Positions 18,401-37,600 of a stretch of 37,947 nt of DNA are shown one piece after another. The position numbers and the translations under genes are program-made. The DNA is taken from assembly GCA_039621445.1 (NCBI GenBank), contig CP154954.1, positions 9,770,641 to 9,808,587 of the forward strand, written 5' to 3'. Positions within the stretch are counted from its first letter, which is position 1. Every line of letters starts with the position of its first letter. This stretch comes from Euglena gracilis (taxonomy: Eukaryota). The notes under the pieces are model-generated. The model was not told the DNA's origin, ran no database searches, and was given only the letters and a program-made list of their open reading frames with translations.

Positions 18401-21400
18401 ATATTTTGAGCCCAAAATTAAGCAAAAAAAAGCGTCAAAAAATGCAAAAAAATTGTAAGTTGTATGTAAATCCTTTAGGAGCTCCCCGGGGCTCTACACT
18501 TTTCTGCTAGAAAGCACTTAGAAAATTTCACCTGCCCTAAAATGCAACACCAAAAGAAAATGTGGTGCAAACTTGCAAAGTGAAATGGTTGGTTCCTCGT
18601 TGCATCCACTTCATCATTAAATGTGAAATTGGTCCAAAAACGTGGGGTATACAACTTCCAGTTACCTGAAAATAGAAAAATTTGTCCACACAAATGCTCC
18701 GAAAAAGTCGGAAAGTCAAAATATGCAAAAAAAAATACAAAAGAATGCAATTTTTCACAATTTTTTAATTGTGCAAAAGAAATGCAAAAAATGCAAAAAA
18801 AATGCAAAACTTCAAGATTTGGATTATGCAAATGCAAATGCAAGTTGTGCTACTTGCATATCTCCTTCCCCCTGGGTACAGACCGGCCTCAACTCCATCC
18901 TGTCTCCCCGCGCAACCAAACGCGGTGTTGTGGAAGGGCTAACCCAGTCCGGCGGTGGCCCCCGGCGGTCCAAGGCCGGCGAGGGCATGGCCCGGTGGTT
19001 GGTCACCGCCCGGCGCCCCTCCCGCCGCAGGACCGCGATGCCCCCGCCGGGCCCTTCGCCACGGGGTTGTCGCCAAGGAAGGAAAGGAAAGGAACGGAAA
19101 GGCTCGGGGAGGGCGTGTGCGCCGTACAAATTTTTACCGACCCCCCCCCCCCGGGTCACTTATCCACTCTCAAAAATATAGTCAGTCACTTTTCAAAAAC
19201 AAGTCACACACTTCCAACCCCACCCCGGGGGGTCAGTCACTTTGGCCACTCCGCCAAGAAAGGCCAAAAAGCAAGGGATTTTGGCCAAAAATCCAAAAAA
19301 TCGGCTGGCCGCTTTCAGCCATTCCTGGCCGACCCCCCCCCGGGGGGGGGGGGGTCTGGAGCCAATAACCAGTCAGTCACTCCGAAAAAAAACCAGTTAC
19401 TCACCCGCTTTGTGAACTGTGGCTGTTTGCTTGGTGTTTTTATCCCTTCTGGCGTGGCGCTGTTTTTCGCCTCTGGCCCTTTTTGTCTGTGTACGTGGAG
19501 GTGACCGGAGCCTGGCGGGACTTACCTTGTTTACTGCGCCGGCCACCAAGCGTCCGCCAGGCCATACAATTCTTTACCGACCCCTCGGGGGGGGGAGGGG
19601 GGGTCACTCCACTTTTTTAAAAACCAGTCAGTCACTCATTTTCAAAAAACCAGCCAGTCACTACCCCCCCCCCGTACCCCGTACCCCGGGGGGGGGGTCG
19701 GCCACTCAGAAAAACGGCCACTTTCCAGTCACTTTAGGCCATTTTAGGCCCAAAAATTTTTGGGGGTTACGCAAGCCAGTTTTGCCCACTCCTGGCCGAC
19801 CCCCCCCGGGGGGGGGGAGGGGGTCCGGGCCAAAAACCAGTCAGTCACTCTGAAAAAACCAGTCACCCACCCCCGGGGGGGGGGGTCGGTCAGTGCTTAA
19901 GCAATTGCCTGTGCCAGGCACATGCTCCACGTCAATCACCTCCCCCCGGGGGGTTGGACACACTTTAAGCAATGGTATGGGTCGGCCACTCTGGAAATAA
20001 TTTTCCGGTGCTCGTGACTTTGGTGGTTATTTGCCACGGGTGAGGGGCTCAAAACCAGTCGGTCACTCTAAAAAAAAAAGTCACCCACCACCGCGGGGGG
20101 GGGGGGTGGCCGGTGACTGGGTCAGTATGGTGTGCAATCAGGCTTCTACAAGGCCCACCGGAGGGGTCCCCGGCGAAGGTTGGGCCCACAACCGCCATAT
20201 CGGACCGTTTCATTTTCATTTTGTCAGTTCGCACGCAGCAGTACGGAGGGTTGTCAGTCATTGTGCTTCCTGAAGTTTGTGCCGTTTGAGGCGATCTCTC
20301 AATCGGAGGCCCCCCCCCCAGAATGTCTTTTTTGGAAAATGCCTTCATGGTGGTGGCTCGTTTTGGGTGTCCCACCCTCGGGGGTTTGTTCGAATGCTCC
20401 CCGACCGGCATTCGATCCTTGTGCGAGGCTGCACTTTGGCCACCCGGCGGCGCAGTGCTTGCATTTGGGGTGAGGCCCACCCCGGGTTCGGTGGGCAGTG
20501 CGTGGCGAGAGCTCCGGCAGCCAGGGAGCGACTTCCGACTCAAACCTCCGATTCTCAAACTGAGAAACTGTCTCCAGACCAAGCACCTCCAGACACTTGG
20601 GATTGTTGGTGCTGTTGTTGGGATTTGTCAGGATTAATCGGGATTTGGCGGACTTTGACCTTGAACGCTGGAGGTGGGGCCCTGGTCGCATCATTTGCAA
20701 GGATTTGATCTACAGCAAATAACGTCTGGTCCACCATATGGTAATTTGTGGGATTGATAATTTACCGAACCAGAACCTTTTTATCTGGCATTGGGACTCA
20801 TGGGCTCATGAGCTGCAAAAAATCAACAAATTAGAGAGAGGGTTGACATTGGGCTATTGCAACCTGTGAGCAGAACACAGCCCCACATTTTTCTCCAAAA
20901 AGGCCAAAACATGGAGTGAAAATAATACTTGGTTGTGCAAGGTATCGACAAATGCACTTGGAAGTGGAGAAATAAAGAATTGACCATAAACAAAAACGTT
21001 TTAATGTGCTTTAATCCAGACGACGCTTTCGACCAGCTGCTGGTCAATGTCAAGCTTCTTTCTGGGTTATTGAGCCTTCCCCTGCTTGTCCAACGACCAC
21101 TAACGATGGTTTCTGCCCGGCGGTGGGGGTGGTCGTTTGGGGGGAGGGACCCAGGTCGAAAAAATGAGGGTTGTATAGCCATTTTTTTCGTTTTGGGCAA
21201 CGTTCGGAAATCCCAGGGCAATTCCGACCAGTTTTGGCCAATGTTTAGCATCTCTCGGCTGTTTGTCGCAATTTTGCAATTTTTGTAATTTGCAGCCATT
21301 CTTTGAGGAGCTATTGTAACCATTTTCATGCCATTTTGGCATTTTCAGACATTTTATGGGGGGCATCCCAGCAAATTTCCCAAAAAAATATCTGAAACAT

Positions 21401-34600: not shown

Positions 34601-37600
34601 CAAAGATGTTAGAAACCCAGCTGCAGACACTCCACTGCATCCATTCAGCTTGCTGAACATGTGCAAGTCTGATTTTCGCTTCTTCCAGATGTCGCTTCTG
34701 TGCCTGAAAGGCAAACATGGAGGACGAACATTGAGGCGTTCGAGCAGGTTGGTTCTACGTCCTCATGCTTGGATAAATTCATTGATTATCATGACTAAAT
34801 GTGAAAACGTTTAAAATTTGAATAGCATTTCAATTTTCACTTTCATAAATCAAGCTCCAAAAAAATATATGTTTCAACTCAAGCGAAAAAGTTCCAACCA
34901 GCACCTTTTTGATTGCACAATTGACTTTTCAGGAACAGAGGCGGGGCCATGGGGGATTGTGGGGACGCCTGCAGGTGGTGGTTCTCCTCCCGCTGCCGCA
35001 CGAGGGCGCTGGAGTTGGAGGCGGCGTGCTCCAGCTGCCCCAGCAGGTTGCGCCGTTCTGGCCGGAGCACGCAAATGTACGAGCTTTGGGGAATGCTTTT
35101 CAAACAGGGTTTTTTCTTAAGACCGGGGGGAGGGGGGTCCCCCCACCAACCCACCCACCCCCTGGGGGGGCCGCCCGGGGGGGGGGGAGGTCCCGAGGGG
35201 ACCCACCCACTTCCCCCCGAAAATGGCCAAAAATCGCGAAAATCCTAAAAATAGCACCGTTTTCAAAAACTTTCGACCTCCCAGGGGAACCCCCCCCGGG
35301 GGGGGGCTTGGCCGGACCCACCCACCCACCCTACCCCCCCCAGGGGTCTATAAAACCCCTGATTTCAAAACCACCTCCTGGAACCTCCTGGAGGGCCCTC
35401 CAGGGCAAGGTTGGGTTTGGGGTTTTGGGTACCCCCCAAGAATTTGGTTTTTGGGGATTCCCAAAAAAGCCCAATTTTTTTGGCTTGGGACCCCCGCTGC
35501 TTTTTTACCTCTTATTGGTGGAGATTTGATTTTTTTAAATCTTTTGGTGAAGATTTCAAAAAATTATGTCCTTGGGCACCTTTGGGGTATCCTAGAGGGT
35601 GAGCACCAACAACTCCTTGATTTATCAACCTCCAGGAGGCATGGGGGTTACCAGCAGCAACACTTGGGAATTCCTGCTGCAAAAAAACCCATTAGAATTC
35701 ACCTCTTGGAATTTTCCAACAAAGAACTCAACATTTTGGCATCCATATCGTCAATGGATTTTGCCCCTAAAAAATACATCAGGAAACGCCCTCACCCCCC
35801 TAATTGCCCCCCTCTCCCAGTTGGCTGATTCACCCAGGCTTTTGCTTAAGGACCCGGGGGGGGGGGGGGCTGGCTAGCCACTCGGCTAGACACTGGAAAA
35901 AATGGACTAACTACACCCCCCCTCCCCGGGGGGGGGGGGGAGTCCGGGGGTCCCCCCAACTGGAAAAATGAGGTTTTTAATAGGTTTTGGTTGTTTTGGT
36001 AGGTTTAATAGGTTTTTTCCAAAAATTCCCAAAAATGGCCAAAAACGGGAATTTTTGGCCATTTTTGGGGGTCCCAAAAAAAAGTTTTTCCACTAGCTAG
36101 CCCTGCTAGCAGACCCCCCCCCGGGGGGAGGTCTGCTAGAAATCCCACTAGCCAAATTTGGACTAGCCGCAGTCCAGCCTCCCCGGGGGGGGGGGGGGGG
36201 AACTGCAATCTCTTAAGCAAAAGCCTGGATTCACCTCCAGGACAAGACCGGCTGGTGAAATTTGGCATTCTCCAAAACCTCCTTTTCAAAATTAAAAGTT
36301 GCCAGATAATTTTATGGCAAGCCCAAACATGCACAAAAAAATCAACTAAATTTGCATGGGTCAAAAAAATAGGTCAAAGAAACGGGCCCCGCCACCCCGG
36401 GAAACTGTCACCAAACAAATCAGCTAATACAGAGGTAGGAGACATGTAGCCAGGTATGAGACCAGATGACAACTTCCCGGCAGGTCTGGTCAAAAGAACA
36501 AAGTTGACATTTTCAACTCCCCGACTAAAAAAAAAGAATCTGGAAAGGGACTTCAAAAAAATCCGAAAATTTCAAAAATGTGTAAAAATGCAGAAAAAAT
36601 TGAAAAATGTTAAAAATTAAAAATATAAAAGTTAAAAAATGGGCAAATCACAAAAAAATGCACTAAAAAGGGAAAAAATGCGCAAAAATGCGGAGTGCTG
36701 AAAAAATGTGCAAAAAGGTGAAAAAAAATGTGAAAAAAAACGCGAAACACATCCCCCCTGGTGGGAGGGGGGAGGGGGCCGTCCTCTGCCGATGATGGTT
36801 GTTTGCAAGGGAAGATATTTCAGAAAACAAAGAAAACTATTGCCAAAAAATTGTGGGGACAGGGGGGGGGGGCTTCCACTTAGATTCGGCGCGGTTCCCA
36901 GGCGAAACGGGCCAGAAAATCCGAAAGGACGGATGCTGGTCACCCTTCACAACCCCCCCTGATCACTCTACTTGCCCCCCCAGGGGGGCCGGGGGGAGGA
37001 GAAAAGTAGAGTGATGCTACCGTTTGCTTGCTTGCTTGCTTGCTTGCTTGTTTGTTTGTTTGTTTGTTTGTTGTTTGTTTGTTTGTTTGTTTGTTTGTTT
37101 GTTTGTTTGTTTGTTTGTTTGTTTGTTTGTTTGTTTGTTTGTTTGTTTGTTTGTTGTTCATTCATTCAGTCATTTATACACGTAAGTAGTTAGTTTGTTA
37201 GTTAATCATTTAATTTATTGATTTTCTGACTGATTTATTTATTTGGTAGCAATGAACTATATGGCCCGCCAAGTGGTTCATCCTGGGGGGGCAGAGAATT
37301 CTACGCTGTTCCCACTTCTCGTTTCAAAGCCGGGGTTATGTTCGGAAATAAGTTTAGAGTTATGGCCGGGTTGCTGTGGGACTCCCGTTGTCATTGTTTT
37401 GGGCCAAAGTCAGGCTGGATTTTGGCCGAATTCAGGTGAAATTTGGGCAAAAACTCAAAAACCTTCCCAGATGGAGTTCTATTTCCATATTCTTACTGCC
37501 CCCCCCCCGGGTGAATTGCCCCCCCAGCCCCCCCAGGAGGGGGCATATAATTCATTGCAGCAATGAACTACTTAGCCCCCGGAAACACATAATTCATCGA

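Follow-up and report, generated by a model that had tools for sequence, protein, structure and literature searches.

Nonconventional introns of euglenids carry CAG at their 5' end and CTG at their 3' end, and the two ends are paired. They account for 71.8% of all introns in E. agilis, and their origins are said to 'remain unclear' (Nomura et al., 2025; PMC12501133). An origin from MITEs (miniature inverted-repeat transposable elements) was published by Milanowski et al. (2014; PMC3935182) and is taken up again by Nomura et al. (2025; PMC12501133), and a 2024 review places the inverted ends at +4..+6 and -8..-6 and describes 'TSD-like' repeats, that is, repeats resembling target-site duplications (PMC11282704). 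As set out in the passages of these sources that bear on it, this case, proposed since 2014, is based on inverted ends and 'TSD-like' repeats alone (PMC3935182, PMC11282704, PMC12501133). Here we analyse a stretch of 37,947 nt of Euglena gracilis nuclear DNA (contig CP154954.1, positions 9,770,641 to 9,808,587 of the forward strand; hereafter the window), which holds six inserts with CAG...CTG ends that an initial annotation had read as introns of this kind interrupting coding sequence. Our analysis indicates that the inserts are very probably MITEs nested in larger introns of two genes, where they are passengers rather than demonstrated introns.

A second system of comparison is that of the introner elements of Micromonas and other organisms, MITE-like transposons whose insertion gives rise to an intron (PMC11282704). 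Like introners, the Euglena elements are short, non-autonomous DNA transposons that have inverted ends and duplicate their target, and the element ends and the duplication could in principle supply all that is needed for precise removal at the RNA level. Introners, however, are introns themselves, lie in exons and are removed by the spliceosome at GT/GC-AG sites, whereas all nine elements catalogued here (E1-E9) are intronic, none coincides with an intron, and the relevant machinery would be the nonconventional one. The inserts also differ from euglenid nonconventional introns, in spite of the shared ends, in that they are nested in larger introns and are not the units removed from mRNA.

Host genes and location of the inserts

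Two transcript-derived proteins match the minus strand of the window at ~100% identity. The open reading frame adjoining E3 (23424-23729, minus strand) is 100% identical to P0001 (eukprot:EG_transcript_12729), a protein of 395 aa with a match to PF04577 (Glyco_transf_61, E = 3.2e-13, Pfam), and the frame adjoining E5 matches P0002 (eukprot:EG_transcript_1341), a 797-aa kinesin. Exact-word chaining and tblastn resolve P0001 into 15 exact blocks that run collinearly along the minus strand between 26583 and 11281, with one residue differing; residues 597-797 of P0002 fall into 8 exact blocks on the same strand, between 37945 and 30089. All donor/acceptor pairs that reproduce the protein were enumerated for every one of the 21 introns, and the ambiguity of the junctions is at most 9 nt. 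The resulting exon map is derived from two proteins that were predicted from an assembled transcriptome.

11281..26583, minus strand: GT61 glycosyltransferase gene (P0001), 15 exons and 14 introns
26583-26494, 25651-25580, 25266-25210, 24900-24835, 24203-24093, 23555-23424, 22605-22579, 22261-22190, minus strand: GT61 exons 1-8
20521-20426, 19069-18989, 16887-16822, 14135-13995, 12856-12791, 12365-12309, 11343-11281, minus strand: GT61 exons 9-15
30089..37945, minus strand: kinesin gene, C-terminal part (P0002 residues 597-797), 8 exons
37945-37910, 35058-34966, 34706-34671, 33907-33815, 33176-33063, 32112-32035, 31670-31548, 30136-30089, minus strand: kinesin exons

No GT-AG option was found at any protein-compatible position in the 14 GT61 introns. 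Among the kinesin introns, numbers 1, 2, 4 and 6 have a GT/GC-AG option and numbers 3, 5 and 7 are nonconventional. The GT61 gene thus divides a 395-aa protein into 15 exons of 27-141 nt over 15.3 kb, with 14/14 introns non-GT-AG. At residue 259 (window 19010-19069) the genome encodes A and P0001 has E, which could be an allele, strain or paralogue difference.

The six inserts and the further elements recognised in the window are listed below, without strand, together with their hosts.

19563..19911: E1, MITE of 349 bp; right end CAGGCAATTGCTTAAG, left end degenerate (CAT); flanks (C/T)GCCAGGC, 7/8 identical; host GT61 intron 9 (20425..19070), nonconventional
21990..22142: E2, MITE of 153 bp; ends CAGGGGGGGGGGGGAAT / ATTCCCCCCCCCCTG; duplication CTGTCCAG, 8/8; host GT61 intron 8 (22196..20516), nonconventional
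23052..23334: E3, MITE of 283 bp; ends CAGGGGTTTTCTTAAAGACC / GCTTAAGCAAACCCCTG; flanks 6/8; homologous to E8; host GT61 intron 6 (23421..22607), nonconventional
25876..26453: E4, 578 bp, the weakest case; left end CAGGCCTTTTTTAAAGACC, right end degenerate (CCTC); flanks 5/8; a 23-nt perfect inverted repeat internally; host GT61 intron 1 (26497..25649), nonconventional
35105..35361: E5, MITE of 257 bp; ends CAGGGTTTTTTCTTAAGACC / GGTCTATAAAACCCCTG; flanks (T/A)TTTCAAA, 7/8; host kinesin intron 1 (37908..35059, 2851 nt), GT-AG
35835..36227: E6, MITE of 393 bp; perfect 16-nt inverted ends CAGGCTTTTGCTTAAG; duplication GATTCACC, 8/8; same GT-AG host as E5
30273..30437: E7, additional MITE of 165 bp; flanks CCTGTCAC / CCTGTCGT, 6/8; in kinesin intron 7
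30443..30870: E8, additional MITE of 428 bp, its left terminus lacking four bases (AGGG); flanks CTGCCTGT / ATGCCTGT, 7/8; in kinesin intron 7
32218..32669: E9, MITE-like, 452 bp; both ends CAGGGCGT; no recognisable duplication (flanks 1/8); in kinesin intron 5
15656..15779: old, incomplete member of the E6 family, with the right end ...GCAGAAGCCTG at 15779; in GT61 intron 11

Discrete elements are present at the six annotated places, with E6 starting at 35835 and not at 35834. All six lie wholly within larger introns, so none of them interrupts coding sequence. The closest exon edge is ~40 nt away for E4, 46 nt for E5, 47 nt for E2 and 87 nt for E3, and in the protein-to-genome maps the mRNA junctions stand 40 to ~2500 nt off the element ends for all six. 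The annotation probably mistook these nearby exons for immediate flanks.

Its proposal was that six exonic inserts are each removed as a nonconventional intron and the reading frame thereby restored. The ends do fit the CAG/CTG consensus, and open stretches do span the joins made in silico, as had been reported; but not one of these stretches, which fall on one strand or the other, is a coding frame. The longest frames opened at E3, E5 and E6 are on the plus strand, antisense to the genes, and that at E4 is not in the frame of exon 1. An open frame across the join was accordingly rejected as evidence of coding, the best frames being on the wrong strand or non-coding. With 12/12 flanks intronic, with E5 and E6 inside kinesin intron 1, which uses GT-AG sites flanking both, an outcome that the annotation itself had named as refuting its proposal, and with mature-transcript junctions far outside all six inserts, the transcript-derived proteins contradict a role of the inserts as introns of coding sequence, and we consider that role highly improbable.

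Element anatomy and 8-bp duplications

The elements end in inverted repeats of the form CAGG...CCTG, and the two degenerate termini noted in the initial annotation were found again, at the left of E1 (CAT) and the right of E4 (CTC). Compared without gaps over the first 16 nt, the ends match at 12/16 positions in E2 and 14/16 in E3, and those of E6 form a perfect 16-nt pair. The identity of the flanking 8-mers is complete for E2 and E6, 7/8 for E1 and E5, 6/8 for E3 and 5/8 for E4. A repeat length of 8 is the only one that fits: in a scan of eight elements, flanking repeats with at most one mismatch were found in 4/8 at k = 8 and in 0/8 at k = 4-7 or 9-12. For random pairs of 8-mers from the window, the chance of at least 7/8 identity is P = 0.0008, far below the frequency seen beside the elements. 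Among all CAGG..CCTG pairs spaced 90-1500 bp apart (n = 2046), flanks identical at 7/8 or more positions accompany 3/14 strong and 1/2032 weak inverted repeats.

Evidence of copying comes from the elements themselves. E3 and E8 are homologous end to end (226/283 aligned positions identical) and their flanks differ, and E8 is inserted at 30436-30445, where the right edge of E7 meets its flank. By blastn, the right part of E6 resembles 15656-15779 at 71% and the right part of E2 resembles 18775-18874 at 72.5%; three related pairs at 71-73% identity were found within the window. Matches to the terminal inverted repeats scoring at least 10 number 33 in the window, a count that takes in the named elements' own ends and some few overlapping hits and leaves roughly 20 further sites.

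In a genome rich in C/G tracts, inverted repeats of this sort might also be chance or structural hairpins with no transposon behind them. Palindromes of the type CCCCGGGG abound in the window and give rise to many inverted repeats, and E4 and E9 are without convincing duplications. However, the exact 8-bp register is found only beside strong inverted-repeat pairs, and neither the end-to-end homology of E3 and E8 in different flanks nor the insertion of E8 at the edge of E7 agrees with a hairpin origin, to which we give very little credence. The data support the reading of the inserts as MITE-like DNA transposons whose inverted ends read CAG...CTG and whose target-site duplications measure 8 bp. 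They belong to several families, as the annotation had also stated, and these are related.

We propose that the six inserts and at least three more elements in the window are non-autonomous cut-and-paste DNA transposons of one loose superfamily, with ends of the form CAGG(G/C)nTTTnCTTAAG.., usually followed by C/G-rich palindromes, and that the transposase makes an 8-bp staggered cut. The MITEs would have landed in pre-existing introns of the two minus-strand genes, GT61 and kinesin, where insertions would be tolerated, and they would leave the mRNA only through removal of the entire host intron, nonconventional for E1-E4 and GT-AG for E5 and E6. The anatomy of the elements, their 8-bp duplications, the copies in the window, the exon maps and the nesting are observed directly; we infer both the order of events, with the intron first and the MITE later, and the passive removal of the MITE with its host.

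Several smaller observations concern the elements. CTGTC is present in the target sites of E2, E7 and E8, a possible target preference in a very small sample. An A-rich 'ATGCAAAAAA' repeat module occurs at 13208-13364, 15090-15248, 18775-18874, 22048-22142 and 36552-36741; it forms the core of E2 and is found at no fewer than four other intronic sites, at 67-82% identity. A search of metagenomes with the 20-nt end of E6 gave one match, inside an apparent bacterial glycosyltransferase gene, which we discarded as chance.

Splice geometry

In knock-in experiments, nonconventional introns are cut strictly 3 nt ahead of CAG and, at the other end, 5 nt past CTG, or 6 nt past it at lower efficiency, and both natural and synthetic introns bearing the N3-CDG..CH'G-N5 signature were removed by splicing when placed at a foreign site (Nomura et al., 2025; PMC12501133). 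The published offsets of 3 nt and 5 nt sum to one 8-bp duplication. This arithmetic, put forward in the initial annotation, is sound: when E1, E2, E5, E6 and E7 are cut in silico at these distances, exactly one copy of the duplication remains. Because the cut offsets leave one duplication copy, the elements are insertions of a kind whose scarless removal by the nonconventional machinery is to be expected. In the literature searched, supplements being outside its scope, we found no statement that ties the sum of 8 to an 8-bp duplication; Fig. 1B and the supporting information of PMC12501133, which deal with the sliding distances of introns, may already hold the distribution of repeat lengths. 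The geometry, together with real MITEs that have 8-bp duplications, offers a useful lead that has apparently gone unremarked so far.

The same geometry raises the question of nested splicing, in which some MITEs, as introns within introns, would be cut from the pre-mRNA at the outer borders of the N3 and N5 spacers, before or independently of the host intron, leaving the mRNA unaffected. On the transcribed minus strand, the full N3-CDG..CH'G-N5|R signature is found in five of eight elements (E3, E5, E6, E7 and E9), and excision of E5, E6 and E7 would leave exactly one duplication copy; the foreign-site splicing of signature-bearing introns reported by Nomura et al. (2025; PMC12501133) points in the same direction. 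The signature fails in E2, which has a pyrimidine at the predicted exon start, and in E1 and E4, where the motif is missing at one end. On balance we regard nested splicing as rather unlikely, and passage with the host intron as the better account of these elements. Certain points nonetheless weigh against the latter. The full splice signature in 5/8 elements means that removal purely as passengers is not proven, and rare isoforms may use the insert flanks. E4 is a weak element, with one degenerate end and flanks matching at 5/8, and the evidence of copies covers the 38-kb window alone.

Nonconventional introns of the window

The published signature N3-CDG..CH'G-N5/6, with its middle base in Watson-Crick complementarity, fits seven introns of the window, GT61 introns 2, 5, 7, 8 and 11 and kinesin introns 3 and 7. 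GT61 intron 3 fits a CGG-CTG variant at 25210..24902, and in the remaining nonconventional introns the ends pair in other ways. All 17 nonconventional introns bear terminal arms that are inverted and 6-19 nt long, with CAGG(..CCTG) in both arms of five and GAGG in two; no such arms were found in the four GT-AG introns of the window.

The border repeats of the 17 introns measure 0-5 nt at the nucleotide level, none of them 8, as against the 8 bp of the elements. When the 3 + 5 register is read at the signature-fitting positions, the matches amount to 2, 3, 1, 4, 3, 3 and 5 of 8 bases (mean 3.0, background mean 2.07), which is not distinguishable from chance. In old introns the intronic halves of the duplications would by now be lost, as is to be expected, so that these results neither back nor contradict an origin from MITEs. 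The following two introns bear on the comparison with the elements.

24902..25210, minus strand: GT61 intron 3, nonconventional, 309 nt; GGC-CGG...CTG-GGGGT|G; 3' arm CAGGCTTCTCTTTGAGAC
22607..23421, minus strand: GT61 intron 6, nonconventional, 815 nt; inverted arms of 17-19 nt, CAGGGTG..GGCTGACC; host of E3

The arm of GT61 intron 3 is similar to the MITE ends: it scores 11, where the 95th percentile of the background is 9 and the 99th is 12. The intron has 54 nt (81%) in common with E9, and the 8-mers abutting its arms match at 5/8 in the 3 + 5 register. Among the real introns of the window it alone has the look of a MITE derivative, and likeness to the MITE ends beyond CAGG was not found in any other intron arm of the window. 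GT61 intron 6 has the second-best inverted pair of the whole window, with spacers of 2 nt and 5 nt and flanking 8-mers matching at 4/8. Its sole protein-compatible position leaves a 2-nt spacer before CAG (AG|CAGGGTG), as against the 3 nt strictly required in knock-ins; this is either a natural exception or another splice register. On an origin from MITEs the introns of the window give a mixed picture, favourable in the inverted arms, in the strong inverted pair of GT61 intron 6 and in the MITE-like features of GT61 intron 3, and unfavourable in the short border repeats, in the low match of the register and in the lack of likeness to the MITE ends elsewhere.

Superfamily of the elements

MITEs of the hAT superfamily have an 8-bp duplication, ends that start with CAG or TAG and follow the consensus YARNG, and a target preference of nTnnnnAn. 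The elements described here, of 153-578 bp, share the 8-bp duplication and the CAG start. The fit is partial in that YARNG accommodates the CAGGG ends and not the CAGGC ends, and nTnnnnAn only some of the target sites. No transposase was seen in the window, where Pfam scans covered open reading frames of at least 130 aa in 1-10.8 kb and none was aimed at the elements themselves. No paper linking Euglena to the 'hAT superfamily' came up in the literature search.

In the literature searched, Merlin is the one superfamily of DNA transposons that we found reported in E. gracilis; its elements make 8-bp duplications, and its ends are all reported to start with GG (PMC8101967). The present elements differ, since the exact duplications of E2 and E6 abut CAGG directly and the elements thus start with CA, not GG.

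Implications for the origin of nonconventional introns

The general idea that nonconventional introns derive from MITEs, which the initial annotation shared, had been published before (PMC3935182, PMC11282704, PMC12501133); these six inserts are not introns of coding sequence. Whether the CAGG...CCTG superfamily with its 8-bp duplications is nevertheless the long-sought source of euglenid nonconventional introns is a separate matter, and we put this forward tentatively, as a possibility that falls somewhat short of even chances. If it were so, an insertion into an exon would be removed together with one of the two 8-bp copies, leaving exactly one and no scar. Both the unusual offsets in the consensus and the mass gain of such introns would then have an explanation, and the intronic copies described here would be those members of the same invasion that are neutral. 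With actual transposon copies at hand whose ends and 8-bp duplication match the cut geometry of 3 and 5 nt, the MITE-origin hypothesis becomes sharply testable across the genome.

Other features of the window

The segment 1-10800 carries, on the minus strand, a degraded retroelement with many broken frames and a YLDD motif near 2190-2230. A partial match to RVT_1 at 1788-2264 (E = 4.2e-5, below the Pfam cutoff) was the sole Pfam match among the large open reading frames of 1-10.8 kb. One segment is present in two inverted copies, 4303-6098 and 10761-8805, at 74-77% identity. Long microsatellites, all of them intronic, occur at 24380-24561, 30640-30680, 33968-34020 and 37022-37158; they consist of (GAG)n and (GAT)n, of (AAT)n inside E8, of (CA)n, and of (GCTT)n/(GTTT)n.

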